A stretch of DNA of 64,000 nt from Bacilli bacterium. Lineage in GTDB: Bacteria > Bacillota_I > Bacilli_A > RFN20 > CAG-826. Below the pieces are notes generated by a model. It did not search any database and was not told the DNA's origin. It saw nothing but the letters and a program-made list of their open reading frames with translations. The position numbers and the translations under genes were made by a program. Of the stretch, positions 7,322 through 34,025 are shown in pieces (positions within the stretch are counted from its first letter, which is position 1; every line of letters begins with the position of its first letter). Location: contig JAZLKX010000001.1 in NCBI GenBank assembly GCA_045597865.1, positions 1 through 64,000 of the forward strand, in the 5' to 3' direction.

Positions 7322-8617
7322 ATGAATTTAAAAGAATTGAGGATTTCAAAGGGATTTTCCCAGCAAAACGCAGCTAATTTGCTTCATATGCCTTTAAGAA
7401 CATATAAGAGGTATGAGCTAGAAAAAGCATATGAAAATTCATACAAATATAAAGCAATTTTTAATGAACTAAAACAACACGAAAAACTACATAAAAAAGT
7501 TACTGAAAATATCTACTCTAAAATATGTATTGTTGGCGGTGGACACGTTGGTCTAAATGTTGGAAAAGTTTTAGCAAAAAAATGCAAGATTCAGATTGTT
7601 GATATTGATGCTAAAAAAGTAAAAGCAATTAATGAGTTGCGCAATGAAAATATAATTGCTGTCGAAGATTTTTCTAAAACAACAAAATTTGATGCAGCAA
7701 TTATTTGTCTTCCAACAAATCTTGACGAGTCTTCTAATGCTTATGACACAAAAGCAATTCAAAAAAGCATTGAGGAAATAAGCAAAAAGAGTCAAACAGC
7801 TTTAATAATTATTAAATCAACTGTTAGCATTGGATTCACTGAGTCAATTTTGAATGTAAAAAACGAAATAATTTATTCACCAGAATTTTTAAGAGAAAAA
7901 ATGGCATATGAAGATGCATTAAATCCAGATCGAATTGTAGTGGGTTGCAAAGCAATTACTCCAAAAACATACAAATATGCCTCAACAATTGAAAGTGTGA
8001 TAAACATTCCTAGAAAAACAATTTTCATGTCGTTAAAAGAAGCTGAGGCTGTGAAATTATATTCGAACGCTTATCTTGCAATGAGAATTGCTTTTTTCAA
8101 CGAGTTAGATACCGTTGCAATGAAGGAAGATATAAATTCAAAGAAAATAATCAAAGCAATGGGATTAGATCCACGAATTGGCGATTACTATAACAATCCA
8201 AGTTTTTTCTATTCAGGCTATTGTTTGCCTAAAGATGCACGTGCTTTATCTAAGAAAGTTAATACAGAATTAATTAATGCAGTAGATGTTTCAAATGAAA
8301 ATAGAAAACAATTTATAGTTGAAAAAATTCTTGATGAAGCAAACAAAAGAAGCAAAAATCCAACTATAGGAATTTATAATCTTGAGACAGAAAATAATGA
8401 TGAAAAACTTCACCAATCTAGTTCAGTTGAACTAATGAACATTTTGCAAAAATATCCAGTAAATGTAGTGGTTTTTGACAAAAATTACAAGGAATCTATG
8501 GATAATTTTGAAGAATTTTGTAAGGCTTCAGATTTAATTGTTTGTAATGCATATGATGATAAATTAGAAGCTGTAAAATCTAAAGTTTTTACAAGAGACC
8601 TATTATCAAAAAGGTAA
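7322..8617 (+). CDS. ugd: XRE-HTH fused to UDP-glucose 6-dehydrogenase-like domain (divergent)
   Basis: LKELRISKGFSQQNAANLLHMPLRTYKRYE followed by GGGHVG, IKST, SPEFLRE, EAEAVKL, YNNPS..GYCLPKD. Confidence 0.85.
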   Translation: MNLKELRISKGFSQQNAANLLHMPLRTYKRYELEKAYENSYKYKAIFNELKQHEKLHKKVTENIYSKICIVGGGHVGLNVGKVLAKKCKIQIVDIDAKKVKAINELRNENIIAVEDFSKTTKFDAAIICLPTNLDESSNAYDTKAIQKSIEEISKKSQTALIIIKSTVSIGFTESILNVKNEIIYSPEFLREKMAYEDALNPDRIVVGCKAITPKTYKYASTIESVINIPRKTIFMSLKEAEAVKLYSNAYLAMRIAFFNELDTVAMKEDINSKKIIKAMGLDPRIGDYYNNPSFFYSGYCLPKDARALSKKVNTELINAVDVSNENRKQFIVEKILDEANKRSKNPTIGIYNLETENNDEKLHQSSSVELMNILQKYPVNVVVFDKNYKESMDNFEEFCKASDLIVCNAYDDKLEAVKSKVFTRDLLSKR

Positions 8618-8676
8618 TAATGTGCTAATCTATAAGCACACATTATATAAATAAATGTGAAGGAGAATTTAATTTT

Positions 8677-9963
8677 ATGTACCAACCTAAAATGAAACTA
8701 ACTCCGGAGCAGAGAGACATTCTCGATGGCAAACAAGGACCTACTAAAGCCAAAATTTTAGAAACCCTTGTTCGTTATGGAGATATTTTTGATGCACCAG
8801 AATTAGTGCCAGTAACCCATGGATGTGGACACTTAGTTACCTCATTCGGTATGGGATTACTCAAACCTGTTTTCCGCATTTGTGATGAAATGATTGAAGC
8901 AGGACTCAAAGTAGAAGGCGGATTCACAATGGATCCTCGTCCAGTTGACTACAAAAACGTCAAATGTAATCTACTTGAAAAAGCAGTCTTCAATCTCATT
9001 ATGTATGGAAAACAAAAAGACTATGAGGAAAGATTGCTCAAGTTAGGAATGGTTCCAAACGATCCATTCTCATGTGCTTGCTATTTCAAAGAAATAGGAA
9101 ACATCCCAAAGAAAGGCGATGTTCTTTCTTGGGCTGAATCATCCGCAGTTAACTATGCAAACTCAGTTCTAGGAGCAAGATGTAATAGAAACTCCGGTAT
9201 GATTGATATTTTCGGATCAATTATTGGCTACGTTCCAAAGTTCGGTTTATTAACCGATGAAGGTCGTAAAGCAACCTGGAAAGTCACATTAAAACTCACC
9301 AAAATGCCAGAAGCTCAAGTACTTGGCTCTGCCATTGGTATGAAAGTTATGGAAGAAGTTCCTTATGTTGTTGGCTTAGACCAATGGATTGGAACTGAAC
9401 TCACTGATGAAGCAACTGGATTCTTAAAAGATTTCGGTGCAGCAACAGCCTCAAATGGTGCAGTTGGTTTATATCATATTGATAAGATTACACCAGAAGC
9501 AAAAGAACAAGGTGAAAAGCTTCTTGCTCCTGGCTATAAAGAATACGTCATTGATGATGCAGAACTCGAAAGAGTTTATAAAAACTATCCAGTCATGTGG
9601 AAGAACAAAGAAAAAGAAGGAAATCTTGCCTTCATTGGCTGTCCACACTTATCACTCAAACAACTCAATGAGTGGACTGATAGATTAGAAAATGCTCTCA
9701 AAGAGAGCGGACGTAAAAAAGTGGCAGTTCGCACCATCCTTTGCACTGCTCCAGCAGTCAAAGAAGTCTTCATTAAGACTGAAGCATATCAAAGATTAAT
9801 GAAGACCGGAGCAAAGCTCACATGCATCTGCCCACTCATGTATGCTAATAACCCACTTACTAAGAAACGTCGTATTATGACAGCTTCTAATAAGTTAAGA
9901 ACATACACACTCGCAAGATACTACAAGACTGATGAACTTGTAGCAAAGATTTGCGGTAAATAA
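8677..9963 (+). CDS. Aconitase X catalytic (large) subunit, DUF521
   Basis: SCACY, SWAESSAVNYANSVLGARCNR, IGCPHLS, TASNKLR motifs. Confidence 0.9.
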   Translation: MYQPKMKLTPEQRDILDGKQGPTKAKILETLVRYGDIFDAPELVPVTHGCGHLVTSFGMGLLKPVFRICDEMIEAGLKVEGGFTMDPRPVDYKNVKCNLLEKAVFNLIMYGKQKDYEERLLKLGMVPNDPFSCACYFKEIGNIPKKGDVLSWAESSAVNYANSVLGARCNRNSGMIDIFGSIIGYVPKFGLLTDEGRKATWKVTLKLTKMPEAQVLGSAIGMKVMEEVPYVVGLDQWIGTELTDEATGFLKDFGAATASNGAVGLYHIDKITPEAKEQGEKLLAPGYKEYVIDDAELERVYKNYPVMWKNKEKEGNLAFIGCPHLSLKQLNEWTDRLENALKESGRKKVAVRTILCTAPAVKEVFIKTEAYQRLMKTGAKLTCICPLMYANNPLTKKRRIMTASNKLRTYTLARYYKTDELVAKICGK

Positions 9964-9977
9964 GGAGGATACGAAGA

Positions 9978-10418
9978 ATGAAAGAATTTAAAGGTCGTGT
10001 CTTAGCAGCAGGAAATTACAAAGGTGAATGCATCGTTTCACACGGTGGATTAAATACTCTTGCAACATTCCAAAGCTCAGCAATTAAACATGCTAAGAAA
10101 GTTATTGCCTCTGATCAAAATAACCCAGATTTATATGGTAAAAACATCACAGGTATTGCATTAATCCTCCCACAAACAATTGGTTCTACAACAGGCGGAA
10201 TGGTTCTTCAAGTCATTTGCTCTATGAAGATCAATCCAGCATGTTTACTCTTCTCTGAGTCTATTGACTCACTTGCAGCAGCAGGTGCAGTTCTCTCAAC
10301 AGTTTGGGAAGGCTCTGACATCATTGTCATTGATAGACTTGGAAAAGAAATTTTAGAAGCCGTTAAGAGTGGTGGACAAGTAGAAGTTAAAGAAGACGGT
10401 ACTGTTATCGTCTACTAA
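9978..10418 (+). CDS. Aconitase X swivel (small) subunit, DUF126
   Basis: FKGRVL, GSTTGG, IDSLAAAG; adjacent to DUF521 gene. Confidence 0.88.
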   Translation: MKEFKGRVLAAGNYKGECIVSHGGLNTLATFQSSAIKHAKKVIASDQNNPDLYGKNITGIALILPQTIGSTTGGMVLQVICSMKINPACLLFSESIDSLAAAGAVLSTVWEGSDIIVIDRLGKEILEAVKSGGQVEVKEDGTVIVY

Positions 10419-10433
10419 TTTAGGAGGCTCAAA

Positions 10434-12500
10434 ATGGATAAGAAATTTGAACCATTATTTACCCCTTGGAAGATTCGTGATGTAGAAATTCGTAATAGAA
10501 TCGTCATGACTTCAATGGGCGGAACATCCCTATTCGGTTGGATGGAACCAGCACACTTCGATAAAGAAGCTGCAAAGTTCATCTTAAAAAGATGTGAGAA
10601 CAATGTTGGATTAATTCTCCCTGGCATTGCTCCAATTAAAAACCCAATGATGGGTGGTTGGTTATACTCCAACAAAGGAATGTATAAAGAACTCAAAAAA
10701 TTCATGGATGAAGTTCACAAAACAGGCGCCAAGTTATTCGTTCAATTAACTGGTGGTTTTGGTAGATCCATGGCTATTAACTCATTAATGGAAAAGTGCT
10801 GCACTAACAAAGTTATGGGCGCACTCATGAAACCAATCTTCAACATGGCTTGGATTAACGCTGCTCCATCAGTTACACCAAACAGATGGTCAGAAAAAGT
10901 TATGACAAGAGCATTAACAGAAAAGCAAATCTTGAAGTTTATTGACGCATTCGCAAGAACTGCAAAACTTTGTAAAGATGCTGGTGTTGATGGTATTGAA
11001 GTACACGCTGTTCATGAAGGTTATTTACTTGACCAATTTACCATGAAATACAGCAACCTCAGAACTGATAAATGGGGCGGTTCTTTCGAAAATCGCTATA
11101 GATTCCCAGTCGAAATCGTCAAAGCAATCAAAAATGCATGTGGCGAAAACTTCCCAGTTTCCCTCCGTTATTCCGTCGTTTCTAAGACAAAAGGATTCGG
11201 CAAAGGCGCAATGCCAGGCGAAGACTATGTCGAAGTCGGACGTGATATGGAAGAATCCGAAAAGGCAGCTAAATACTTACAAGATGCAGGTTACGATATG
11301 CTTAACTGTGATAACGGAACCTACGATGCTTGGTATTGGGCTCACCCTCCAGGATACATGGGTAGAAACTGTAACTTAGCTGAAGTCGAACACATTAAGA
11401 AATTTGTTGATATTCCAGTTGTTTGTGCAGGTAATATGGACGCAGATGTTGCTGCAGAATCCATTAAAGCAGGTAAACTTGATGGCATGGGTGTCGCAAG
11501 ACAATTCCTTGTCGATCCAGAATGGGTAACAAAGTTAATGGAAGATAGAATTCCAGATATCAAACCATGTATTCAATGTCACAATGGCTGTTTCAATATG
11601 TGTCACTACAAAGGTGTCGCAAATGATCAAGCCTTAGGTGATGCAATCCACATGGCAAGATGTGCATTAAACCCAGAAACAATGCAATCAGGCAAGTACT
11701 ACATTAAACCAGCTAAAAAAGCAAAGAATGTTGCTATCATCGGTGGTGGTATTGGTGGAATGGAAGCCGCACTTGTTCTCGCAAAACGCGGACATAATGT
11801 CACAATCTTTGAAAAGAGTGATGTATTAGGTGGTGTCTTCATTGCCGCAGCAGCTCCTTCATTCAAAGAATCTGATAGATCACTCATTGAGTGGTATAAA
11901 CGTGAAATTGCTAAATATCCAGCAATCAAAGTTGTTCTTAACAAAGAAATTAAATGCCCAGATTGCTTAGCAAAAGAAGGCAAATTCAATGATGTTATCG
12001 TAGCAACTGGGTCAGTTGCAAGAAAACTCCCAGTCAAAGGCGGAGAACTTTGTGTTCCAGCCGTTGACTTCTTACTCGGCAAAGCCGAAGTAGGAGATAA
12101 TCCAGTTATTATTGGTGGTGGTCTTACTGGATGTGAAATTGCTTATGAACTTTCAATCCATGGCAAGAATCCATCAATCATTGAAATGAAGAATGATTTA
12201 ATCGCAGTACGTGGCGTTTGCTTAGCAAACTCTTCATACTTAAGAGATTACTTCGAACTTCATAAAACTCCAGTTTTCTTAGAAACTAGTGTTAAAGAAG
12301 TTACCAAAGACGGTGTCATTGCTGTTGATAAAGACGGCAAAGAATTTGAAGTCAAAGGTAGTGCTGTTATTGCATCAATTGGTTATAAACCAACCCCAGC
12401 ATTTGAAGGAAAACATGTCCACTTAGTTGGCGATTGTAATGCAATCGGAAACTTAAGAACAGTTATCTGGAGAGCTTGGGATGTTGCAATGAAGATTTAA
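10434..12500 (+). CDS. NADH:flavin oxidoreductase, 2-enoate reductase-like (OYE + 4Fe-4S + FAD/NAD domains)
   Basis: RNRIVM, GIEVHAVHEGYLLDQF, RTDKWGGSFENR, CIQCHNGC...C, two GGGxxG motifs. Confidence 0.88.
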   Translation: MDKKFEPLFTPWKIRDVEIRNRIVMTSMGGTSLFGWMEPAHFDKEAAKFILKRCENNVGLILPGIAPIKNPMMGGWLYSNKGMYKELKKFMDEVHKTGAKLFVQLTGGFGRSMAINSLMEKCCTNKVMGALMKPIFNMAWINAAPSVTPNRWSEKVMTRALTEKQILKFIDAFARTAKLCKDAGVDGIEVHAVHEGYLLDQFTMKYSNLRTDKWGGSFENRYRFPVEIVKAIKNACGENFPVSLRYSVVSKTKGFGKGAMPGEDYVEVGRDMEESEKAAKYLQDAGYDMLNCDNGTYDAWYWAHPPGYMGRNCNLAEVEHIKKFVDIPVVCAGNMDADVAAESIKAGKLDGMGVARQFLVDPEWVTKLMEDRIPDIKPCIQCHNGCFNMCHYKGVANDQALGDAIHMARCALNPETMQSGKYYIKPAKKAKNVAIIGGGIGGMEAALVLAKRGHNVTIFEKSDVLGGVFIAAAAPSFKESDRSLIEWYKREIAKYPAIKVVLNKEIKCPDCLAKEGKFNDVIVATGSVARKLPVKGGELCVPAVDFLLGKAEVGDNPVIIGGGLTGCEIAYELSIHGKNPSIIEMKNDLIAVRGVCLANSSYLRDYFELHKTPVFLETSVKEVTKDGVIAVDKDGKEFEVKGSAVIASIGYKPTPAFEGKHVHLVGDCNAIGNLRTVIWRAWDVAMKI

Positions 12501-12519
12501 TCTTCATTATAACAAATTT

Positions 12520-12544
12520 AAAGGGAACCATTTGGTTCCCTTTT
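12520..12544. terminator. Bidirectional terminator
   Basis: AAAGGGAACCA-TT-TGGTTCCCTTT between convergent genes. Confidence 0.75.
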
Positions 12545-12545
12545 C

Positions 12546-13379: not shown

Positions 13380-13453
13380 GGTTTCTATTTTACCAAATTT
13401 CGCCAACAATAGCACCTTGTAAAAAATCACTTAGAGTGATTAAATATAAAGGT

Positions 13454-14650: not shown

Positions 14651-14728
14651 GACATCTTTTCTTTTAAAAATTGTTGCTTTTAAATAAGCAAAGAATATAA
14701 TACATACACAAATATGGAGGACCATATA

Positions 14729-20602: not shown

Positions 20603-21013
20603 TTAATTTGATTCAATAATCTTAATCATCATATCTGGATCAACTATGAATACCCTTTTAGGAAAGTCTTTTAGATTTCCAGTGATTAAGTAGGAATCTT
20701 GAATCATGTTTGCTGCTAATACAACCTGGAAGAATTTAATATCAGACGGGTCTGAGAAGAATTCATCCGTTTCAATTCCATTTAGAACTCGACCATAATC
20801 TTTTATTGTATTTAGAATACTTTGAATTCTTTCTTCTGAGAAATGGAATTTGTCTCTATGTAGTACTTCGACATATTCGTCCATTATTTCATCATTGTAA
20901 ACTGGGATTATTTTTCCTTGCTCAACATATGAAATAATTTTCTCAGGATTTGAATTAGGTTTGATCAGCGCTGATACAATGACGTTTGTATCAATAACTG
21001 CTACATATTTCAC
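20603..21013 (-). CDS. PIN-domain toxin
   Basis: VIDTNVIVSAL, DPSDIKF, LITGNLKDFP. Confidence 0.88.
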   Translation of the reverse strand: MKYVAVIDTNVIVSALIKPNSNPEKIISYVEQGKIIPVYNDEIMDEYVEVLHRDKFHFSEERIQSILNTIKDYGRVLNGIETDEFFSDPSDIKFFQVVLAANMIQDSYLITGNLKDFPKRVFIVDPDMMIKIIESN

Positions 21014-21309
21014 TTCTTATTGTTTTGTTCTTTTCTTACTTCTGCAATAATTTCGTTTATCTCATCAAGAGTTATTTTATCTAAACCCATTTTTTTTGAA
21101 TGCTCATGAATCGCATTTAATGCTTCTTCAAATTCTTCATGGCTAACGTGTTTTTCAATAACAGGTTCAAATGGGATCCCGCCTGTTCTGATTACTTTAA
21201 CCAAAAACATTCTAATAGCTGTGCTTAGATCTAGTCCAACACTCTTAAGAACAAACTCAGCACTTTCTTTTGTGCGTTCATCAATTCTAACTTGTAATAC
21301 TGTTGACAT
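21010..21309 (-). CDS. RelB/DinJ-family antitoxin
   Basis: LQVRIDE..K..AE...GLDLSTAIRMFL...GIPFE; overlaps toxin start. Confidence 0.88.
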   Translation of the reverse strand: MSTVLQVRIDERTKESAEFVLKSVGLDLSTAIRMFLVKVIRTGGIPFEPVIEKHVSHEEFEEALNAIHEHSKKMGLDKITLDEINEIIAEVRKEQNNKK

Positions 21310-21456
21310 AGTTATACTCCTTTGTAATGACATTGTACTACACTTAATGCCTAAAGTGAAGAACTACTTCTCCTTTTTACAAGATACCTCTTGCCGGAAG
21401 AAATAAGATAATAACGCCCCCTTCTTAAGCGTTTATTTTATTTATTTCTTATTTAT

Positions 21457-24269: not shown

Positions 24270-24443
24270 ATGCTTTCATGAAAATTTTCAGAAAATGTCT
24301 TGCATTGTTAAAAAATAGTAGTAAAGTATAGCATCAAAATTTCTTACAAAGAGGTAAGAGATTTGATAAAGAAGGCCCCTGATTGCCTAGTAACCTAAAG
24401 TCAGGCCCGATAATGTATTAGTACAGAAAGGAGATTGAATAAT

Positions 24444-24584
24444 ATGTCTGTCTATGAATTAATCTTAGAAGAAGAATATGAAAACAAAGTCAACTCCTCT
24501 GAAAATATAAACCCGGATATTGATGAGGAAAGACCACTTGTAGATGCTAACAACATTAACACCTCAAGTATGTTATTCTTCTAA
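24444..24584 (+). CDS. Small acidic protein (46 aa), not in ORF track
   Basis: AGAAAGGAG RBS; MSVYELILEEEYENKVNSSENINPDIDEERPLVDANNINTSSMLFF; terminator at 24603-24630. Confidence 0.65.
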   Translation: MSVYELILEEEYENKVNSSENINPDIDEERPLVDANNINTSSMLFF

Positions 24585-24695
24585 TAACCCCCAAACAAAA
24601 CTAAGCAATCCAGCAATGGGTTGCTTTTTTGTTAACCCAATCAATTTTGATCATTGTATGTCAATAAATGAGCAGATATTGGGTTAACACGCCTA

Positions 24696-24745
24696 AATAT
24701 GCAACTTTTGCACTTTTTCTTTACTTTTTAGTTCAAAGGTATACT
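24696..24745 (+). promoter_or_regulatory. Palindromic operator plus -10 of HTH-fnlA
   Basis: AATATGCAA-CTT-TTGCACTTT followed by TTCTTTTA, as upstream of HTH-ugd; TATACT at 24740-24745. Confidence 0.6.
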
Positions 24746-24770
24746 ATGTATATAACAAAGAGGTGCAAAT

Positions 24771-25964
24771 ATGACATTAAAAGAAACTCGCAAAAATTGC
24801 AAATTAACTCAAGAAGAAGCAGCAAAAGTTGTAGGTGTTGCTCTTCGTACATATGTTTCCTATGAAAAGGATGAAAAGAAAGCTGATAAGCTCAAATTAA
24901 CAAGAATGATTGAAATTCTAAACGAGTACGCAGCAAAGGATACTTCTATCCTAAAAGATAAGGTTTTATTGATAACGGGTGGTACCGGATCATTCGGACA
25001 CGCTGTTGTAGACAGATTCCTTGAAACTGATATTAAAGAGATCAGAATCCTTTCTCGTGATGAGAAGAAACAAGATGATATGAGAAAGGCATACAACAAC
25101 TCCAAACTTAAATTCTATATTGGCGATGTTCGTAACCTTCCAAGTATTGTTGATGCATTCAAAGGTGTTGACTATGTTTTCTCTGCAGCAGCACTTAAAC
25201 AAGTTCCATCTTGTGAATTCTATCCAATGGAAGCAGTCAGAACAAATGTCATTGGTTCAGACAACGTTATTACAGCATGTGTTCAAAACCATGTTAAGAA
25301 GGCAATCTTCCTTTCCACAGATAAAGCAGCTTATCCAATTAACGCAATGGGTATTTCAAAAGCACTTATGGAGAAAAACGTTATCGCAAGATCAAGACAA
25401 CTTCTTGAAGGCGATACAGTTCTTTGCTTAACTCGTTATGGAAATGTTATGGCGTCTCGTGGTTCAGTTATTCCTCTTTTCTTACAACAAATCAAAGATG
25501 GAAAACCAATTACAATTACAAACCCAGATATGACAAGATTCATGATGACTCTTGATGATGCTGTTGATTTAGTTCTTTATGCATTTGAACATGGTGAACA
25601 AGGAGACTTATTTGTCCAAAAAGCTCCAGCAGCAACAATTGATACTCTCGCAAAAGCAGTTATTTCATTAACAGGAAGCAAGACTGGTATTTCTTACATC
25701 GGAACTCGTCATGGTGAAAAACTCTTTGAAACACTCGTCACTCAAGAAGAAATGCTCAAGGCAGTTGATATGGGAAACTTCTTCTGTGTTAAAGCAGATA
25801 ATAGAGACCTCAACTACGATAAGTACTTCTCAAAAGGAAACAAGAAGTTAAATCTTGGTGAATCTTATACATCCCACAACACCGGAAGACTCGATGTTGA
25901 AGGTATGAAAAAACTCCTTAAAAAACTTGAATTATTTGGCGGTGCAGTTAGACAACACGAGTAA
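24771..25964 (+). CDS. fnlA: XRE-HTH fused to UDP-GlcNAc 4,6-dehydratase/epimerase (FnlA/Cap5E/WbjB)
   Basis: LKETRKNCKLTQEEAAKVVGVALRTYVSYE then LLITGGTGSFG, SRDEKKQ, AALKQVPSCEF, STDKA, RYGNVMASRGSV. Confidence 0.92.
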   Translation: MTLKETRKNCKLTQEEAAKVVGVALRTYVSYEKDEKKADKLKLTRMIEILNEYAAKDTSILKDKVLLITGGTGSFGHAVVDRFLETDIKEIRILSRDEKKQDDMRKAYNNSKLKFYIGDVRNLPSIVDAFKGVDYVFSAAALKQVPSCEFYPMEAVRTNVIGSDNVITACVQNHVKKAIFLSTDKAAYPINAMGISKALMEKNVIARSRQLLEGDTVLCLTRYGNVMASRGSVIPLFLQQIKDGKPITITNPDMTRFMMTLDDAVDLVLYAFEHGEQGDLFVQKAPAATIDTLAKAVISLTGSKTGISYIGTRHGEKLFETLVTQEEMLKAVDMGNFFCVKADNRDLNYDKYFSKGNKKLNLGESYTSHNTGRLDVEGMKKLLKKLELFGGAVRQHE

Positions 25965-25987
25965 TAAAAATTTTAGGATGCAAAAAA

Positions 25988-27088
25988 ATGAAAATTTTAG
26001 TTACTGGTTCTAATGGATTTATTGGTAAACACATGGTTAGGCTTTTAACCAAGCACAACTATGAAGTTTTACCATACGATTTAGACAAGACTGAGAGCGA
26101 CTTAATTAGCTACATTAAAGAGGCTGATTTTGTTGTTCATTTAGCTGGAATCAATCGTCCATTAACAACCGAAGAATTTTATGATGGCAATACTAACTTC
26201 ACAAAGAAAATAGTGGACTTTTTGCGTGAAAATCACCGCGAAATCCCAGTTATTATGTCTTCTTCAATCCAAGCAGCACTTGATAATGATTATGGTAAAT
26301 CTAAGAAAATGGGAGAGGATTTTTTACTCAATTCTGGATTACCTGTTTATGTCTTCAGATTAGCTAATGTTTTTGGCAAATGGTGCAGACCAAATTATAA
26401 CTCTGCAGCAGCTACTTTTATGTACAATATTGCCCATAATTTGCCTATTGAAATTAGGGATCGAAATTACGTTGTTCATTACAATTATGTTGAAGATATT
26501 TGCGAGACTTTTTTAGGATGTATTGAAGGTAAAATTGAGCCATCAAAAAGTATCCTTTCTGTAAGCCCTGTTCATAATTGCTCTTTAGGTGATCTTGCTG
26601 ACAATCTCAATAGATTTAAAAATGCAGTAGAATCAAATGAACATCTTCCAGTGATTCATAACGAATTCGAATATAAATTGTTTGTCTCATTCTTGGATTA
26701 CTTAAGTGAAGAAGGTTATTCCTTCAATTTCGCTGAAGATCAACGTGGCTCATTTGAAGAAATCTACAAATCAAAGAAATATGGACAAATCTCAATCAAT
26801 AAATCTTTCCCTGGAATAACAAAAGGTGGACATTACCACACATACAAAAATGAAATCTTCATGACTGTGAAAGGTGAATGTCTCACACGTCAAAGAAAAA
26901 TTGGTGGTAAAGAAATTCTTGAATTCCCAACAAAAGGAATTGAATCAAAGAAAGTTGATATTTTTCCTAATTATACGCACGACATAAAGAATGTTGGGGA
27001 TGAAGAGTCAATTACACTAATGTGGATTTCAGAAGTATACTCTGATGCAACAGCGGATACATATCGTGAGGATGTAGACCTAAAATGA
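25988..27088 (+). CDS. fnlB: UDP-4-keto-6-deoxy-HexNAc reductase/epimerase with cupin C-terminus (FnlB/Cap5F/WbjC)
   Basis: TGSNGFIG, HLAGINRP, YGKSK, NVFGKWCRPNYNS, DQRGSF, KGGHYH. Confidence 0.88.
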   Translation: MKILVTGSNGFIGKHMVRLLTKHNYEVLPYDLDKTESDLISYIKEADFVVHLAGINRPLTTEEFYDGNTNFTKKIVDFLRENHREIPVIMSSSIQAALDNDYGKSKKMGEDFLLNSGLPVYVFRLANVFGKWCRPNYNSAAATFMYNIAHNLPIEIRDRNYVVHYNYVEDICETFLGCIEGKIEPSKSILSVSPVHNCSLGDLADNLNRFKNAVESNEHLPVIHNEFEYKLFVSFLDYLSEEGYSFNFAEDQRGSFEEIYKSKKYGQISINKSFPGITKGGHYHTYKNEIFMTVKGECLTRQRKIGGKEILEFPTKGIESKKVDIFPNYTHDIKNVGDEESITLMWISEVYSDATADTYREDVDLK

Positions 27089-27315
27089 GAACAATAGAAA
27101 AAGGTGCTACATATAGACATTTCAAAGGTAATCTCTATAAAGTAATTGAGATAGCAAAGAATACTGAAACCAATGAAATGATGGTAGTGTATCAAGCTCT
27201 ATATGGAGATTATGGTATATTTGTAAGACCACTTGATATGTTCCTATCTAAAGTAGACAAAGAAAAATATCCTGATTCAAATCAGGAATACAGATACGAA
27301 AAAGTAGAAGATTAA
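27085..27315 (+). CDS. DUF1653 protein
   Basis: YRHFKG..Y.V...TETNEMMVVYQALYG...FVRPLDMF. Confidence 0.88.
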   Translation: MRTIEKGATYRHFKGNLYKVIEIAKNTETNEMMVVYQALYGDYGIFVRPLDMFLSKVDKEKYPDSNQEYRYEKVED

Positions 27316-27458
27316 GGCATTAACAAAGTTAATGTCTTTTCTTTATAACTAAATACCTATGATGTATATCGTTTTTGTGTATTTTACTAAGCCTTGATTT
27401 TCCTTGAATATATAGTTGAGCAAAGAAAAAACTTGCTCACACTACCAAGGAGGAAAAG

Positions 27459-27557
27459 ATGAGGGGAACATTAATAAATATTGGATTTCTAGCGTTTCTT
27501 GTTTTGTGCTTTCTAATTCAAATATTTCTCTTTCATCGCTTAATCATTAATTGGTAG
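27459..27557 (+). CDS. Small single-TM protein (32 aa), not in ORF track
   Basis: AAGGAGG RBS; MRGTLINIGFLAFLVLCFLIQIFLFHRLIINW. Confidence 0.6.
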   Translation: MRGTLINIGFLAFLVLCFLIQIFLFHRLIINW

Positions 27558-27577
27558 TAAAGAAAGGATCAAAAAAT

Positions 27578-27787
27578 ATGATGTCAACATTCTTAATTAT
27601 TATGGGAATCGTTACCCTAATCATTGCATTAGCTGCAGCGATTGGCCAAATAGTGAAAATTAGTAATGCTTTCAGTGAATATGCATCAGGTTGGGAGAAG
27701 TGCGGAACGATCTTAAATTTACTCGCAATTCTCACTCTTGGAGCAGGCATTGGAATCTTGTTCTTTGTAGTATCAGGATTAATTTAA
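27578..27787 (+). CDS. Small two-TM protein
   Basis: GAAAGGA RBS; two hydrophobic segments. Confidence 0.7.
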   Translation: MMSTFLIIMGIVTLIIALAAAIGQIVKISNAFSEYASGWEKCGTILNLLAILTLGAGIGILFFVVSGLI

Positions 27788-27830
27788 ATAATCCTAAAAC
27801 TAGCAAAATTTTAGTGAAAGGAGATACAAA

Positions 27831-28085
27831 ATGGATAGAAGAAATTGTGTTGCAAGAGGCTACTATAAATTCATAGGTTGTTTTATTGGATTGTTTACTC
27901 TTGTCGGATTAGTTTTCTATATTATTTTGATGGTCAGAACATTAGGCAATGGTACCGATTGGTTAACTACAACTTGGTTAATTTTAGGTCTTGTTGCAAT
28001 GGTAACAATTCTTCCAACTTTAGCTAACTTCTTTATCGGAAGAGGTTGTGGAGATAAGTACCATCTAAACGATACAAATTGCTAA
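27831..28085 (+). CDS. Small two-TM protein
   Basis: GAAAGGAG RBS; two hydrophobic segments. Confidence 0.7.
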   Translation: MDRRNCVARGYYKFIGCFIGLFTLVGLVFYIILMVRTLGNGTDWLTTTWLILGLVAMVTILPTLANFFIGRGCGDKYHLNDTNC

Positions 28086-28263
28086 AAAACAAAAACCTTT
28101 ATTTAAGGGATGACACTAGAAAGTGCCATCCTTTTTACATAAAAACAAAAACCAAGAAAATTCGATAAATTCGAGCTTTTTTGAGCCATATATATTTAAA
28201 TAGTAAATTATTCTTTGAATAAGTAAGGCATTTTGGTAAAATATAAAGCAACTGGAGAAAATT

Positions 28264-30324
28264 ATGGAAACTACTAACAAACCAAATTCACAACAAACAG
28301 CAGTAGCAACCAAGGTAGTAAAGAAGACTAGAAAAGTCGTTGTTTCTAAGAGCATTTTCTATTGTATCTTCGTTGTTATCTTTGCTATTGCATCATTCTT
28401 ACTATTCTGTCTCGACCAGGACAACTTTTTAAGAAAGAACTTCAATGCTGAATGGCTAGACGCTATTGCTAAGTTCTTTAGCGGGTCAAAAGAAGAGGGA
28501 TATTTAGGACTCGAATTCGATGTCACAATGATGACATGGATTACATTCTTTGTCTTTGTAATTGTATTCTTTGCAATTTTTACAACATTCTTCTTTAGAA
28601 AAAATCTTTTACAAAAGAAAGAAGCAAAACAAATCCTTAAAAAAGGACAACCTCTTTCTGCAAAACAAAAAACTTTATTTAATGTTTTCTATTTCGTTGG
28701 CGCAGCCGCTTTAATGGCAGCGTTAATTCTCGTAATTTTCTTAGTTGTAGTTCCACTTTTACCACTTCCTGCATCACAAAAAGACCCAGCATTTATTGGG
28801 CAAAACTTATTAATTAATACTCTTCCAACTATTGGGATTGTTATGTTATTTGTTGCTATATTCCCAGCAGCATGTTTAGTTTTATTCTGTTTATTCAAAG
28901 TTATTGTCTTCCTTGTAAGCTTAATTGTTTCTGGCGTTTCCAAATCAGTTATGCAATCAGAAGAATACCAAGAATCAGTTGCTGCAACTCAAGCTGCAGC
29001 AGCAGATATCGCTTCTTCAATGGCAGAAGCCAAAGGCTTATCTGGTGATGCACTCGCAAGAGCAAAAGATGCTCAAAAGAATCCAAACAAGAAAAATTCA
29101 ATGGCTGGATTTAATATTTTCCCAGCTCTTGATAATATTGATAAAAAATATGATGAAATTGCTGCAGAAGCAGAAGCTAAGAAAGCTGCAGAAGAAGCTG
29201 CTAGGGCAGAAGCTGAAGCTGCTAGAGCAGCAGCAATTGAAAGAGGCGAATCTGTTCCAGAGGTTGTTGAAGCACCAAAAGAACCAGAACCACAAGAAAT
29301 TACATATGAAGAATTCACACAATTCGCATATGAGTTCCAATCATACCTTTGCCATCAAAAATATTATTTCGACCTTACAATTATTAGATCATTCATTGCA
29401 GGTCTTGCATCTTCAAGAATGATTCTTCTCCAAGGTTTGTCTGGTACAGGTAAAACCACACTCCCACGTGTATTCCTTGAATACATTGGTTCAAAAGCAT
29501 GGTTCTTCCCAGTCCAAGCAACATGGAGAGATAGATCTGACGTTACTGGTTACTTCTCAGAATTTGCTAACGAATTTAAAGAAACAGAATTCTTAAAGCA
29601 CTTATATGAAGCAAGCTATATGCCAGAAAAAGTTAACTTACTTGTTCTCGATGAAATGAATATTTCCCGTGTTGAGTACTATTTCGCTGACTTCTTATCA
29701 ATCTTTGAATACCCAAGTGCAGACTGGTTAGTCCCACTCATTCAAATCCATGATGACGTAGTCATGCCAAAGAAACTTGAAGGTGGTATGGCTCGTATTC
29801 CAACCAATACTTGGTTTATTGGCACAGTCAACATTGATGACTCTACATTTACAATTACAGATAAGGTCTATGACCGTGTTATTGCTATTGACTTCGAAGA
29901 ACTCAACATTCCATTCGAATCAGACTACAACTATGATCCACATCCATTAAAATGTGGTGAACTCGAAAAGATGTTCGCAGAATCAAAAGCACATGATGAA
30001 AATAGACTTTCTGAAGAAGAAAAACTCAAATTCCTCAAACTTGCTGCATTTACTGCAGATACATTTGATGTTAAGTTTGGTAACCGTATTATGAACCAAA
30101 TCGAAAACTTCGTTCCTGTTTTCGTTGCCCTTGGTGGTACAAAGGAACAAGCTCTCGACTTAATGTATGCTAATAAGATTCTCCGTAAGTTAAACGGTAA
30201 ATTCGAATCATACATCAAAGATGGTTTAGTTAAACTTATTCGTTACCTCAATACCGAATATGGTAAAGGTGTCTTTGTTAAGACAGAGAAGTTAATTAGC
30301 CTCATTCAAAAGAAACTTGCATAA
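28264..30324 (+). CDS. McrB-like AAA+ GTPase with N-terminal multi-pass membrane domain and coiled coil
   Basis: 4-5 TM segments; A/E-rich helix; Walker A GLSGTGKT, Walker B LVLDEMN, McrB signature GTVNIDD, DKVYDR. Confidence 0.82.
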   Translation: METTNKPNSQQTAVATKVVKKTRKVVVSKSIFYCIFVVIFAIASFLLFCLDQDNFLRKNFNAEWLDAIAKFFSGSKEEGYLGLEFDVTMMTWITFFVFVIVFFAIFTTFFFRKNLLQKKEAKQILKKGQPLSAKQKTLFNVFYFVGAAALMAALILVIFLVVVPLLPLPASQKDPAFIGQNLLINTLPTIGIVMLFVAIFPAACLVLFCLFKVIVFLVSLIVSGVSKSVMQSEEYQESVAATQAAAADIASSMAEAKGLSGDALARAKDAQKNPNKKNSMAGFNIFPALDNIDKKYDEIAAEAEAKKAAEEAARAEAEAARAAAIERGESVPEVVEAPKEPEPQEITYEEFTQFAYEFQSYLCHQKYYFDLTIIRSFIAGLASSRMILLQGLSGTGKTTLPRVFLEYIGSKAWFFPVQATWRDRSDVTGYFSEFANEFKETEFLKHLYEASYMPEKVNLLVLDEMNISRVEYYFADFLSIFEYPSADWLVPLIQIHDDVVMPKKLEGGMARIPTNTWFIGTVNIDDSTFTITDKVYDRVIAIDFEELNIPFESDYNYDPHPLKCGELEKMFAESKAHDENRLSEEEKLKFLKLAAFTADTFDVKFGNRIMNQIENFVPVFVALGGTKEQALDLMYANKILRKLNGKFESYIKDGLVKLIRYLNTEYGKGVFVKTEKLISLIQKKLA

Positions 30325-30342
30325 TGCATAATCATATAAAAT

Positions 30343-31875
30343 ATGAAGACTGATATTGCTAATTACTTACATGACTACAATCTCAAACTTTTAAACAAAG
30401 TTATTAATGAGAATGCTTTCTCCAACCTTGGGGAAGCTTTTTCACAATCTCCTGCAGGCCAATTAGCAAGTGGTCTTAAATCAAACCCTATTGATGAACA
30501 CATTGAATTCCCATGGATTGATCAACTTGACGAAGTCACTGAAAAGATTATGTCAATTGCATCAAACCCAAGAACTCACGTTCGTTTTGATAAAGAAATT
30601 CGTCTTGCAGAACAAGCAGTTAAAGTTGATGGTAATGATATGAAGATGACCACCAAAACTTCAAAACTCTGGAGACTTAAAGACGAAGCATTTAAACCAG
30701 AAAAAGTTTATACAACTGTTTATGAAGCTGATTATGCAATCTATGAAAATAGATTCTTACTTAACCTTGTTAACAAGATTAATAACCTTTTAAATCACGC
30801 TATTAGACAATTAAATGAAATTGTTAAGAAAGTTAATAGAAACTACGTTAACAAAAATGTTTCTTTAGCATCTATTGATGATGTTAACGATATTGCAAAT
30901 CTCACCAAGATTTCAATGAAGAAAGAGAAATCTGATCAAAACTTGTTATTAACAACATCAGATGCTCCATTCCTTGAAGACTGGAAGATGATTATTAAAG
31001 CAAAGAACAGAATCAATAACTTCTATTCAACTGAGTTCTATCGTTACTTAAAGGATCAAAAACCTCTTTCTGATAGTGATGTTCATATCACAAACATCTT
31101 AGCAGAAGATCGTTCTTACGCTCCATGTTATAACTTCTATCTTAAGTTAATTAGATTAACTGACAAGATTGATGAAGAAAAGAAACCAGTTGATCCAATT
31201 GAATACCATAACTTTGTTGTTACTAACTTATTCTCAGTTCTTGGAAAAGAAGGCTTCTTTGCACCTATGACAGCTCAAAATACCATTGAAATCGCAGGTA
31301 ATTTGATTAGATTCAAAGACTTCTTAGTTTCTAAGGATGAAATGAATTGTTATATTACAACTCAAGACAAAGATCACATTGATCTGAAGTTTGAATTCAA
31401 CTATGCAAAGGATCAACCAATTGCTTCTGACCCAATGTTTGCAGGTAGACGTCATAACCTTGTAAGTATTGACTTAGTTGCTGCTAAAGACGCTGAATTC
31501 CTTAATATTGAAGAATTAGCAGTTCACTTCAGAAAACTCATCAACCAAAGACTTGCAAATGGTTATACAAACTCATTTGTTGTAACTCCAATTGACGGAA
31601 CACAAAAAGATGATGTAATCATCTGTTCACCAGATGTTTATAAGATTGATGCAAATATCACAAATATGATTAAATCATGCTTAATCTTTGCAGAAGGTGA
31701 TACAACACTTTACTCTAAAGTTTGTCCTATCTGTGGAGCTTACATGGATGGTGAACAAGAAAACGGTAACTGTTATTGTTCCAACTGTGGTTCAACATAC
31801 AGCTTAATGAGCCAAGGTAAAGATTCTGGCAAGACAGAACTTATCTGGATTAAGCGTATTAAAAATCCTGATTAG
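30343..31875 (+). CDS. McrC-like (DUF2357) protein with C-terminal Zn ribbon
   Basis: DYAIYENRFL motif, YAPCYNFY helix, CPICG...CSNCG; directly downstream of McrB-like gene; terminator 31899-31928. Confidence 0.7.
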   Translation: MKTDIANYLHDYNLKLLNKVINENAFSNLGEAFSQSPAGQLASGLKSNPIDEHIEFPWIDQLDEVTEKIMSIASNPRTHVRFDKEIRLAEQAVKVDGNDMKMTTKTSKLWRLKDEAFKPEKVYTTVYEADYAIYENRFLLNLVNKINNLLNHAIRQLNEIVKKVNRNYVNKNVSLASIDDVNDIANLTKISMKKEKSDQNLLLTTSDAPFLEDWKMIIKAKNRINNFYSTEFYRYLKDQKPLSDSDVHITNILAEDRSYAPCYNFYLKLIRLTDKIDEEKKPVDPIEYHNFVVTNLFSVLGKEGFFAPMTAQNTIEIAGNLIRFKDFLVSKDEMNCYITTQDKDHIDLKFEFNYAKDQPIASDPMFAGRRHNLVSIDLVAAKDAEFLNIEELAVHFRKLINQRLANGYTNSFVVTPIDGTQKDDVIICSPDVYKIDANITNMIKSCLIFAEGDTTLYSKVCPICGAYMDGEQENGNCYCSNCGSTYSLMSQGKDSGKTELIWIKRIKNPD

Positions 31876-31990
31876 TATATATATTAATATAAAGATATAA
31901 GCGTTTCAGAAAAATGGAACGCTTTTTTCTTTACTTATCATTATATGATTACTATAATATAGGTGTGGGATATCCCACCAAGGAGGAATT

Positions 31991-32224
31991 ATGGACTTAA
32001 CAATTAATTCTTACAATTCTAAAGTCGATTCAAAGAATAGAATCACTTTAAGAAAAGCACGTTTTGATTACTATAACGTGCAAGAATTTGAAGATGGCAA
32101 GATTGTTTTGGAACCAAGAGTATTAGTTCCGCCTTTTGAAGTTTCAAAGAGAACATTAAAGATGATGGACAAATCTGTAAACAATGTTAAGAAAAACAAA
32201 GTTTCAGATCCTATCAAATTTTAA
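31991..32224 (+). CDS. AbrB-like putative antitoxin
   Basis: KVDSKNRITL...DGKIVLEP swapped-hairpin pattern; TAATG overlap with next gene. Confidence 0.7.
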   Translation: MDLTINSYNSKVDSKNRITLRKARFDYYNVQEFEDGKIVLEPRVLVPPFEVSKRTLKMMDKSVNNVKKNKVSDPIKF

Positions 32225-32592
32225 TGCAATTTGAAATAAGACTTGGAGTTCCGGAAATGCTGGCATTCTGGAACGATTTATCTTCTAAAGTAGATAAAGG
32301 ATTAGCAAATAAGAATGAAGTGCTTCTGCACAGTAAGCTAGTTAAAGTATTTAAGTTCTTACAAGCTAATCCAAGACATCCGTCTCTTGATTCTCATGAA
32401 ATTTCACAATTAACTTCTAGATATGGAATAAAAGTATTTGAATCATATTTAGAAAACCATACTCCAGCAGCCGGTAGAATCTTCTGGGTATATGGTCCGA
32501 TCAAGAACTCTATTACAGTTATTGCAATTGAACCTCACCCAAATGACAAGTCAAATGGCTACAGCAAAATAAAATTGTCATCAACAAATTAG
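32224..32592 (+). CDS. RelE/ParE-like putative toxin
   Basis: LQANPRHPSLDSHEI, FESYLEN, GRIFWVY, ITVIAIEPHP. Confidence 0.7.
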   Translation: MQFEIRLGVPEMLAFWNDLSSKVDKGLANKNEVLLHSKLVKVFKFLQANPRHPSLDSHEISQLTSRYGIKVFESYLENHTPAAGRIFWVYGPIKNSITVIAIEPHPNDKSNGYSKIKLSSTN

Positions 32593-32664
32593 AATGAAAA
32601 GCTCACAAAATCATGTGGGCTTTTCATTTTTAACGACAAATAGTGACACAATTGTAAATTAATA

Positions 32665-32693
32665 TTGTAATAATATGACATTTGGCGTATTAT
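32665..32693 (+). promoter_or_regulatory. Promoter with operator in the spacer, leaderless HTH-fnlC
   Basis: TTGTAA-N17-TATTAT, ATG 6 nt later; palindrome ATAATATGACA-TT-TGGCGTATTAT at 32670-32693. Confidence 0.65.
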
Positions 32694-32699
32694 TTAGGC

Positions 32700-34025
32700 A
32701 TGAATAAATTAGAAAAAACACGTAAAGAACTTGGTTTAAACCAAAAACAATGCGCTGATCACTTAGGCGTATCATTAAGAACATATCAAAGATATGAACT
32801 TGATAATTATTTGGAAAGTGGACAAATAGATGACATTGTCGCTAAAATTAGCAATATTTGTCATAGTTTGTCATATAAACACTTTGAAAATAATGGAAAG
32901 CTCAAACTTTTGATAATTGTAGGCACAAGACCAGAAATCATTCGTCTTGCAGCAGTCATAAATAAATGTAGAGAATACTTTGATACTCTTCTTGCACATA
33001 CAGGTCAAAACTATGATTACAATCTCAATGGTGTCTTTTTCAAAGACCTCAAGATAAAAGATCCAGATATATATTTAAATGCTGTTGGAAAAGACCTTGG
33101 TGAAACAATGGGCAACATCATTGCAAAATCATATGAATTAATGGTGGAGATTAAACCAGATGCAGTACTAGTACTTGGAGACACTAATTCATGTCTTTCA
33201 GTAATAGGAGCAAAACGTCTTCATATTCCAATCTTCCATATGGAAGCCGGTAATAGATGTAAAGATGAATGTCTCCCAGAAGAAACAAATAGAAGAATTG
33301 TTGATATCATCTCTGATGTTAACTTAGCGTACTCTGAACACGCTAGAAGATATTTAGCAGACTCAGGTCTTCCTAAAGAAAGAACATATGTCACTGGATC
33401 ACCAATGGCAGAAGTCCTCCATCAAAACATTAATGAGATTGAATCCAGTGACATATTGAATAAACTTTCCCTTAAAAAGGGTAAGTATATCCTTCTTTCT
33501 GCACACCGTGAGGAAAACATTGATACAGAGAAGAACTTCAATAGCTTGTTCTCTGCTATTAATAAGATGGCAGAGATATACGATATGCCAATCTTGTATT
33601 CATGCCATCCAAGATCAAGAAAAAGACTTGAAGCTACAGGATTCAAACTTGATCCAAGAGTAGTGATGCATGAACCTTTAGGTTTCCATGACTACAACAA
33701 CCTTCAAATGAATGCTTTCTGTGTTGTATCTGACTCTGGTACTTTACCAGAGGAATCAAGTTTCTATGCTTCTATTGGTAAACCAATCGCAGCAGTCTGT
33801 ATTCGTACATCTACAGAAAGACCAGAAGCATTAGATGATGCATGCTTTGTACTCGCTGGAATAGATGAAAAGAATCTACTCCAAGCAGTGGAAGTTGCAA
33901 TTAATAATAAAGCTGGTTGTCATCCAGTAGATAATTACATTGATACAAATGTATCTGATAAAGTAGTAAAACTAATCCAATCCTATGTTGGAGTAGTAAA
34001 TAAAATGGTTTGGAGAAAGGAATAA
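32700..34025 (+). CDS. fnlC: XRE-HTH fused to UDP-HexNAc 2-epimerase (FnlC/Cap5G/WbjD type)
   Basis: LEKTRKELGLNQKQCADHLGVSLRTYQRYE then VGTRPEIIRL, HTGQNYD, LGDTNS, HMEAGNRC, HREEN, SDSGT, TERPE. Confidence 0.9.
   Translation: MNKLEKTRKELGLNQKQCADHLGVSLRTYQRYELDNYLESGQIDDIVAKISNICHSLSYKHFENNGKLKLLIIVGTRPEIIRLAAVINKCREYFDTLLAHTGQNYDYNLNGVFFKDLKIKDPDIYLNAVGKDLGETMGNIIAKSYELMVEIKPDAVLVLGDTNSCLSVIGAKRLHIPIFHMEAGNRCKDECLPEETNRRIVDIISDVNLAYSEHARRYLADSGLPKERTYVTGSPMAEVLHQNINEIESSDILNKLSLKKGKYILLSAHREENIDTEKNFNSLFSAINKMAEIYDMPILYSCHPRSRKRLEATGFKLDPRVVMHEPLGFHDYNNLQMNAFCVVSDSGTLPEESSFYASIGKPIAAVCIRTSTERPEALDDACFVLAGIDEKNLLQAVEVAINNKAGCHPVDNYIDTNVSDKVVKLIQSYVGVVNKMVWRKE

Follow-up and report, generated by a model that had tools for sequence, protein, structure and literature searches.

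Three nucleotide-sugar enzymes of an uncultured bacterium from the horse gut (genus Candidatus Fiminaster) begin with the same type of small XRE-type helix-turn-helix (HTH) domain, hereafter the head. The 64,000-nucleotide (nt) stretch of DNA analyzed here (the window) comes from contig 1 (JAZLKX010000001.1) of a 1.74-Mb, 58-contig genome that is 96.9% complete, and the three open reading frames (ORFs), all on the forward strand, are those of Ugd (7322-8617; 431 amino acids, aa), FnlA (24771-25964; 397 aa) and FnlC (32700-34025; 441 aa from the conserved ATG). The HTH fusions are conserved across the genus and the family and are under purifying selection. We propose that the head belongs to a portable promoter-operator-HTH cassette which, judging from the sequence comparisons described below, probably makes the first enzyme of an operon its own regulator.

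Fused genes and their enzyme bodies

As the initial annotation had claimed, an HTH of ~55 aa is in frame with the enzyme in all three ORFs, and both the coordinates and the N-terminal peptides that it quoted agree with the translations. The LRTYxxYE motif that it singled out is common to the three heads, among which 11 of 45 positions are invariant, and the absence of the HTH that it reported for FnlB (25988-27088), FnlB2 (56885-57976) and WecB (59237-60340) was borne out as well. The three genes are not parts of one capsule locus: ugd stands alone among housekeeping genes, and ~5.6 kb of unrelated, partly defense-like genes separate fnlC from fnlA-fnlB. The UDP-L-FucNAc gene trio is present in the window, with fnlA and fnlB adjacent and fnlC downstream; in the relatives L022 and L041, the three genes are contiguous, in the order fnlA-fnlC-fnlB in L041.

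The Ugd head (aa 1-55; 7322-7486), delineated by the HTH profile and an AlphaFold2 model, is followed by a nucleotide-sugar dehydrogenase body (7487-8617), of which residues 66-423 match the subfamily TIGR03026 with 227.1 bits (cut-off 189.8). The score against the UDP-glucose 6-dehydrogenase equivalog NF011631 is 214.6 bits, under the cut-off of 757, and because the subfamily cut-off is passed and the equivalog cut-off is missed, "Ugd" is only a working name. In FnlA, the head (aa 1-57; 24771-24941) precedes a body of the FnlA/CapE-type UDP-GlcNAc 4,6-dehydratase/5-epimerase kind (24942-25964): residues 61-388 match Polysacc_synt_2 (E = 5e-101), and residues 59-390 align with the PDB entries 4j2o and 3vvb (CapE), of which 4j2o, a UDP-GlcNAc 4,6-dehydratase/5-epimerase, is the closest (E = 8e-151). 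The match to the TIGR04130 equivalog (536.5 bits) falls short of the cut-off of 730; this body can safely be described as FnlA/CapE-like, with its exact product putative. The FnlC head (aa 1-55; 32700-32864), defined by the HTH profile, is joined to a WecB/FnlC-type UDP-GlcNAc 2-epimerase body (32865-34025), in which residues 68-426 match TIGR00236 (wecB) with 231 bits (cut-off 210) and Epimerase_2 is detected at E = 8e-81.

In all three translations, we identified by eye motifs that we take to be the cofactor-binding and catalytic ones, including GxGxxG and the Cys motif GYCLPKD in Ugd. The bodies look intact, match their families over the full length and are predicted to be catalytically competent. 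The fused Ugd is the sole match to PF00984 in the genome, a search with the FnlA protein found no second FnlA in the same genome, and the FnlC-type epimerase has one unfused paralog. The single PF00984 copy, the lack of a second FnlA, the strong constraint on the enzyme part (see below) and the visible motifs suggest that the heads are additions to working enzymes.

Conservation and selection

The FnlA protein was searched for in 24 other genomes of the genus and in 16 genomes of other families. HTH-FnlA is encoded in 22 of the 24, with 21 matches running through residues 1-397 without a stop and one through residues 1-350, its 3' end being cut. The remaining two consist of a match to residues 45-396 at a contig end and, in a 73%-complete genome, only a 20-residue fragment; the former (genome G014) was considered as a possible unfused FnlA and rejected because the contig ends there. 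The 16 genomes of other families contain one close FnlA (63% identity), which starts at residue 59 and is an unfused, 354-aa frame. In a large protein collection, FnlA residues 1-62 match 75 clusters, every one of which consists of proteins of 341-427 aa with Polysacc_synt_2, and the Ugd head matches 33, all of them dehydrogenases of 404-479 aa. For the 90% identity cluster that contains the FnlA protein (863 members), the sole name seen is "polysaccharide biosynthesis protein".

For 14 distinct fnlA coding sequences (91 pairs), the median ratio of nonsynonymous to synonymous substitution rates (omega) is 0.18 for codons 1-57 versus 0.05 for the enzyme, at a synonymous divergence (dS) of ~1. 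Therefore, the head is translated, and selection constrains it, if more loosely than it does the enzyme. Across the HTH proper, omega is 0.18-0.23, at saturated dS.

Fold and relatives of the head

AlphaFold2, given an alignment of 16 sequences, predicts the 55-aa head with a predicted local distance difference test (pLDDT) score of 92.7 and with four helices (residues 3-10, 14-20, 25-33 and 41-52), compared to five in the canonical HTH_3; in the full-length FnlA model, the pLDDT of the head is 82-92. The head models as a compact XRE-type fold with a helix 2-turn-helix 3 arrangement, and its best fold neighbors in the PDB are all of the XRE type, with template modeling (TM) scores of 0.55-0.72 (HigA2, Aca1, C.BclI/C.Esp1396I, CylR2, SinR and P2 C). 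A profile comparison with PDB sequences identified Xre regulators and antitoxins as the nearest relatives, namely, ImmR, PezA, HigA-like proteins, MqsA, HipB and CylR2, with E-values from 1e-8 to 1e-2. At the N-terminus of FnlA, the Pfam family HTH_3 (PF01381) is detected with 31.1 bits, above the cut-off of 23 bits; the HTH_3 matches of the heads cover positions 1-31 or 1-49 of the 55 profile positions. The recognition-helix motif is nearly invariant across the fusion partners.

Hosts of the head and history of the fusions

A profile built from the three heads retrieved, in the 1.74-Mb genome, the heads themselves (E ~ 1e-25) and one more strong match (E = 1.9e-11), a fourth head on contig 18, where its fusion partner is a nucleotidyltransferase of the Pol-beta (MNT) type. 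Of 37 genomes of the genus, 36 contain matches to the head. The hosts of this subtype other than FnlA include FnlC, three kinds of dehydrogenases (419-465 aa), many MNT proteins of 152-159 aa and one glutamine synthetase (517 aa); an M18 aminopeptidase and an AAA_14 ATPase have looser HTHs. At the level of the order, the subtype was detected at E < 1e-9 in 38 of the 151 genomes sampled, and outside the family nearly all of the matches are in frames of 155-200 aa. The larger frames that were retrieved from other genera of the family encode HTH-FnlA, HTH-Ugd, an MNT protein of 204 aa and a protein of 572 aa with a MarR-type domain at its C-terminus, and one retrieved from another family encodes an AAA_14 ATPase with the head.

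A profile search of 1.84 billion representative sequences yielded 564 matches at E < 1e-10, of which 23 single-domain matches longer than 135 aa were scanned for partner domains. The partner is a Pol-beta nucleotidyltransferase in 9 of these, a FnlA-type enzyme in 4, a dehydrogenase in 4 and a piece of ADH_Fe_C in 1, whereas 4 have the HTH only and 1 belongs to no family. Thus, MNT is the commonest and most widespread host of this head subtype. HepT-like RNase genes follow the HTH-MNT genes, as at L039:2141-2569 (E = 1e-15) and L040:2803-3135 (E = 5e-23), both beside HTH-Polbeta ORFs; therefore, these are MNT-HepT antitoxins with a built-in HTH. The initial annotation had seen the head on UDP-sugar enzymes; its presence on MNT antitoxins, glutamine synthetase and AAA ATPases shows that it is not tied to them. 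In the ESM Atlas, five clusters (of at least 50 members) combine HTH_3 (99-100%) with UDPG_MGDP_dh and are commonest in Bacillota; no large cluster of HTH_3 with Epimerase_2, which would correspond to FnlC, was found there, in a resource where small clusters cannot show up.

Some of the rarer hosts deserve separate mention. The glutamine synthetase (L041:9430-11001; genome G023, contig 6) is a full-length type I enzyme (Gln-synt_C, E = 1.6e-122) with a FnlA-type head, and its gene, located directly 3' of fnlA-fnlC-fnlB and 5' of a small GAF-domain gene, is preceded by a Shine-Dalgarno sequence and by no clear family palindrome. The same head subtype is present on two proteins of 572-575 aa (L034:139-1857 in G141 and L033:144-1871 in G116), one of which has an AAA_14 ATPase domain and the other a C-terminal MarR-type winged helix, that is, two different DNA-binding domains.

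We constructed a tree of 33 heads from 56 alignment columns, which is unrooted and has many unresolved forks. The heads group by partner, with 6 label changes compared to a mean of 17.5 for shuffled labels (none of the 200 shuffles was as low). FnlA and glutamine synthetase heads form one clade (support 93/94) and FnlC heads together with one MNT head form another (95/93), and the Ugd heads make up two groups among the MNT heads. This partner-wise arrangement implies at least three or four separate fusions. The recurring, in-frame architecture that the initial annotation had postulated is supported across genus and family. Antitoxin-type heads are the likely donor pool, a direction of fusion that we read from the distribution alone, with MNT hosts order-wide and the enzyme fusions largely within the family.

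Promoters and candidate operators of the fused genes

At every locus inspected, the head-bearing gene has its own promoter-like upstream region. One genome of the genus has an operon of HTH-fnlA, unfused fnlC, fnlB, HTH-glnA and a GAF gene; in other genomes of the genus, the head-bearing fnlC comes directly after fnlB. By its sequence context, each fused gene is the predicted opening gene of a transcription unit.

We aligned the 110 nt upstream of every fused gene. The promoter elements in the window all lie on the forward strand. The extended -10 box of ugd, TGaTATAAT (7307-7315), ends 6 nt before the ATG, without a Shine-Dalgarno sequence, and the same is true of the fnlC promoter found in a promoter scan (TTGTAA, 17 nt, TATTAT; 32665-32693). 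A -10 box that ends exactly 6 nt before the ATG, with no Shine-Dalgarno sequence, characterizes 5/5 Ugd, 4/6 FnlC and 5/8 MNT genes, versus 50 of 479 crude control starts. The FnlA genes instead have a Shine-Dalgarno sequence (13/14); in the window, a 14-sequence alignment outlines the fnlA promoter region (24720-24765), with the -35-like TTTACT, the -10 element TATACTAT and the Shine-Dalgarno sequence GAGGTG. The 6-nt spacing and the missing ribosome-binding site suggest leaderless mRNAs for Ugd, FnlC and most MNT genes. A sigma-54 reading of the sequence starting with TGGCAC was dropped on inspection alone because there is no -12 element and the distance to the ATG is wrong for such a promoter. 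No Rfam families were found anywhere in the window.

A candidate operator can be assigned to each of the three genes. That of ugd is the imperfect palindrome GTGTCAATTTGGCAC (7267-7281), just upstream of the -35 region; it is identical in four Ugd orthologs or paralogs and takes the perfect form GTGCCAAATTGGCAC in a fifth. Upstream of fnlA, the candidate is the perfect palindrome TGCAA-CTT-TTGCA (TGCAACTTTTGCA; 24700-24712), and in the footprint of 14 orthologs from the genus conservation is confined to its two arms, between which the spacer is free to vary, and to the -35 region (T-rich), the -10 box and the Shine-Dalgarno sequence. The fnlC candidate, TGACATTTGGCGTA (32676-32689), is imperfect and overlaps the -10 box; in an ortholog, the site is perfect (ACGACATTTGTCGT). 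The MNT genes have TGCCAAAATGGCA upstream of the -35 element, often with an additional half-site between -35 and -10. The layout of palindrome, TTTTTC and -35 is common to Ugd, FnlA and MNT promoters, which suggests that operator, promoter and head moved together.

If up to one mismatch in the arms is allowed, the general 13-bp pattern TGNNA-N3-TNNCA is present in 22 of the 34 distinct upstream regions of fused genes and in 9 of 479 controls; with spacers of N1, N2, N4 and N5, it occurs in 2, 1, 2 and 5 of the 34, respectively. Generic GC-containing inverted repeats gave a weak signal (arms of at least 5 in 14/34 versus 83/479; arms of at least 6 in 5/34 versus 60/479), so that the enrichment applies only to the family-specific, fixed-spacing pattern. 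Furthermore, the helix ...TY[V/I/F][S/T/A]YE pairs with the half-site TGCAA, the helix ...TY[K/I/C/V]RYE with TG[C/T]CA, and the helix ...TYQRYE, which is that of FnlC and the contig-18 MNT protein, with ACA..TTTGGCGT. The last element is present upstream of both fnlC and the contig-18 MNT gene and in 0 of the 479 control upstream regions. The candidate half-site is thus one that changes with the predicted recognition helix across unrelated partners.

Sites in this genome are few. In intergenic DNA, there are two Ugd-type TGYCA-N3-TGRCA sites, one of which precedes ugd, whereas no gene follows the other; the exact FnlA-type site occurs 28 times, of which only one is intergenic (27 are in coding DNA); and the FnlC-type site is intergenic once. 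Exact sites in the intergenic DNA of this genome precede only their own gene, and no further regulon members emerged. Two loose palindrome matches that were followed up, before a Bro/ANT phage antirepressor gene and before rimP, were judged to be due to chance. As a separate observation, the contig-18 HTH-MNT antitoxin gene (genome G000, locus L039, 56178-56737) has the upstream sequence ACAAATTTGGCGT, which is close to the fnlC site TGACATTTGGCGT (window 32676-32700), and cross-talk between this toxin-antitoxin module and fnlC is conceivable.

Proposed self-regulation and alternative explanations

The cassette, as we envisage it, would combine a promoter and a palindromic operator of 12-15 bp with an XRE-type HTH of four helices and ~55 aa that is in frame with the first gene of the unit. 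The same type of cassette would head the MNT antitoxin of MNT-HepT pairs across the order; in a family of small-genome Bacilli, it would have been joined, in at least three to four events, to Ugd, FnlA, FnlC and, once, glutamine synthetase. Oligomerization of the enzyme body would present two HTHs to the palindrome at the protein's own promoter, and dimerization by this route is plausible because the HTH has only 4 helices and ~55 aa. The fused protein would then set the transcription of its own unit while the enzyme stays catalytically active. Repression is likely for fnlC because of the overlap between its candidate site and the -10 box; in ugd and fnlA, where the site is just upstream of the -35 region, either sign of regulation could apply. 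The HTH carried by an antitoxin is a classical autoregulator in toxin-antitoxin modules. We infer DNA binding, autoregulation and enzyme-mediated dimerization from what the sequences show, namely, the fusion itself, its conservation, the selection on the HTH, the fold, and the palindromes with their match to the HTH subtype.

Several observations weigh against self-regulation. The palindrome pattern was defined after the sequences had been viewed, the 34 regions include non-independent orthologs, and the control starts are crude. The N3 pattern is missing from 12 of the 34 fused genes, including the glutamine synthetase gene and the fnlC gene of the window, where the site is imperfect and differently spaced, and the Ugd and FnlA sites are centered near -50, not a classical position for a repressor. 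The HTH_3 scores of FnlC (22.2 bits) and Ugd (16.8 bits) are under the 23-bit gathering cut-off, and every Foldseek E-value for the head is above 0.3, owing to the small size of the query domain. The Ugd palindrome, together with its T run, looks like a terminator in a scan (9-bp stem, -8.5 kcal/mol). The terminator reading is a minor rival, and for Ugd only, because strong terminators already lie 30-75 nt upstream (7217-7236 and 24603-24626) and a hairpin has no need for fixed TG...CA ends. Finally, contigs that are ~90-95% alike, from three RNA-library runs, bridge the head-enzyme junctions at 24794-25420, 24823-25226 and 32767-33397, but these cannot show transcript start, strand, level or protein and could include carried-over DNA, so that they add little.

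In the initial annotation, the fused proteins were viewed as transcription factors that sense UDP-sugars (or NAD(H)), with a ligand in the enzyme switching DNA binding and, possibly, a wider glycan regulon. All the support for DNA binding also fits this view, the three partners in the window act on UDP-sugars, and coupling through a linker appears feasible given that a synthetic fusion of an XRE HTH with shikimate kinase, as described in PMC3602430, responded to shikimate in vitro. We nevertheless consider ligand sensing unlikely. The same head on MNT antitoxins, glutamine synthetase and AAA ATPases points to a common function independent of UDP-sugars, for which general self-regulation is the better fit; the genome has no further intergenic copies of the sites apart from the few loose matches before the phage antirepressor gene and rimP; and in one genome of the genus FnlC is unfused beside a fused FnlA. 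A more doubtful, indeed improbable, explanation is that the HTH binds no DNA and is a protein-protein or ribosome-contacting (MBF1-like) module that places or assembles the enzymes, the palindromes being targets of another factor, terminators or insulators. The RodZ-like HTH is such a protein-protein module, XRE folds with non-DNA partners are among the structural neighbors of the head (MBF1/EDF1 on ribosomes), the fifth helix of the canonical HTH_3 is missing, and the terminator-like score of the Ugd palindrome would fit too. However, the half-site varies with the recognition helix across unrelated partners, and in sequence the head is closest to antitoxins and repressors that bind DNA. Constant TG...CA ends and N3 spacing, together with a variable spacer sequence, are not what would be expected of a hairpin; moreover, the folding energy of the FnlA site is only -3.0 kcal/mol, and no hairpin is predicted at the FnlC palindrome.

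The head could also be translated but spent, either as a relic of promoter capture that holds a leaderless start codon or because the working enzyme arises from an internal start or by cleavage. A leaderless transcript requires an AUG at its 5' end, so that a captured promoter with the first codons would drag the HTH along, and FnlA has an in-frame Met46. We regard this as highly improbable, given the omega values of 0.18-0.23 across the HTH proper even at saturated dS, the near-invariance of the recognition-helix motif across partners, the absence of a Met or a Shine-Dalgarno-like sequence at the Ugd and FnlC junctions, and the retention of the head by FnlA despite its own Shine-Dalgarno sequence.

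Genomic neighborhood of the fnl genes

FnlB, encoded on the forward strand as the unfused second gene of the fnlA unit (Epimerase and Polysacc_synt_C domains), is followed by a terminator-like site at 27314-27338. Contigs from the RNA libraries pile up at 24300-24626 and 27243-27900, far above the neighboring genes: in run X18, the summed contig depth is 34,303 at 24300-24626 and 24,973 at 27243-27569, versus ~10 over fnlA. The first region contains a 46-aa ORF (24445-24585) and a strong terminator, and the second contains small membrane-protein ORFs; neither has an Rfam match. The pile-ups may reflect small RNAs or mRNAs of high abundance, or else stretches of sequence common to other organisms.

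Between and after the fnl genes, a defense and mobile island spans 27085-47921. It encodes DUF1653, a 686-aa membrane and AAA protein that matches the PADLOC candidate PDC-M26A and is followed by a 510-aa unknown protein, a DUF4143 ATPase (PDC-S01), a SWIM protein, two RhuM-like proteins (PDC-S05), a TIR-like protein with a STAND NTPase (PDC-S73; 39978-42221) and a DDE transposase (46602-47921). A PIN-RelB pair is located within the island (39047-39823), and a second pair is found at 20603-21333. A second glycan cluster (48051-63998) consists of genes for an ABC exporter, LicD, pyruvyl transferases, GT8, GT4 and GT2 transferases, a cytidylyltransferase and the unfused FnlB-like (FnlB2) and WecB proteins mentioned above. 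This cluster may depend on the HTH-FnlA at 24771 because it lacks a FnlA of its own.

Implications and comparison with known systems

Within one lineage, the acquisition of an HTH by an enzyme can be followed several times, with the enzymes seemingly intact and apparently single-copy, each accompanied by a matched candidate operator, and these genomes still contain the antitoxin genes that are the likely donor pool. Should DNA binding be confirmed, the fusions would represent a compact, transferable unit of self-regulation, would provide natural helix-operator pairs for studies of XRE specificity, and would explain how the precursors of surface glycans are controlled in very small genomes without dedicated regulators. 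There is also a caution for annotation, given that the fused proteins are named only "polysaccharide biosynthesis protein" or "UDP-glucose/GDP-mannose dehydrogenase family protein". A bolder and rather unlikely scenario is that a toxin-antitoxin-derived cassette (operator, promoter, leaderless start and minimal HTH) was repeatedly joined to whichever enzyme comes first in glycan and nitrogen operons, where it replaced separate transcription factors, the enzyme supplying both dimerization and metabolite sensing. In that case, each pathway would be under the control of the enzyme that opens it, which would represent a natural "missing link" from enzyme to regulator.

The initial annotation knew of no earlier description of such fusions. 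We found no paper on them among open-access papers and preprints, but the combination of HTH_3 with UDPG_MGDP_dh is already present in the five ESM Atlas clusters. Trigger enzymes with their own DNA-binding domain include BirA, NadR, PutA and archaeal RbkR. As in these bifunctional proteins, the fused enzymes are presumed to act on their own gene or on genes of their pathway. Unlike them, they carry a minimal four-helix XRE HTH instead of a winged helix or a ribbon-helix-helix; a single type of domain is found on several unrelated enzymes in one genome; and the head appears to bring along its own promoter, operator and, often, a leaderless start, whereas a ligand switch is only hypothetical here.

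According to the abstract of PMC3602430, it is widely held that enzymes become regulators by recruiting DNA-binding domains, and few experiments address this directly. BzdR, as outlined in that paper, consists of an N-terminal HTH-XRE, whose 90-aa domain dimerizes alone, a linker and a shikimate-kinase-like domain without activity, and the engineered Q1 chimera of an XRE HTH with shikimate kinase is both an enzyme and a repressor. The fusions described here resemble BzdR and Q1, as presented there, in the N-terminal HTH-XRE linked to an enzyme-type domain and in the proposed route from enzyme to regulator. They differ from the BzdR of that account in that the enzymes look intact and have no second copy in the genome, the head has only ~55 aa, and the partners are Ugd, FnlA, FnlC, GlnA and MNT. 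They do not belong to the BzdR subfamily, their C-terminal parts being UDPG_MGDP_dh, Polysacc_synt_2 and Epimerase_2, and only the design principle is common to both.

The HTH antitoxins (HigA, HipB, MqsA and PezA) and the Xre-MNT and MNT-HepT systems provide the nearest relatives of the head in sequence and fold. Toxin-antitoxin systems likewise have palindromic operators at and inside the promoter, and the commonest host of the head is MNT followed by HepT; unlike in these systems, the partners in the window are housekeeping or glycan enzymes, with no toxin gene downstream. A further resemblance is to the C proteins of restriction-modification systems and to phage cI/Cro, small XRE folds on short palindromes at their own promoters, with C.BclI, C.Esp1396I and P2 C among the fold neighbors. 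Leaderless transcripts are frequent for such C-protein and phage autoregulators, for example, lambda cI transcribed from PRM. These regulators are free-standing dimers of 70-100-aa proteins, whereas here the domain is fused to an enzyme of 340-390 aa. Overall, enzyme-regulator fusions and, in automatic annotation, the HTH_3-dehydrogenase architecture are already known, and BzdR together with the trigger-enzyme class is the closest concept to the self-regulating enzymes proposed here.

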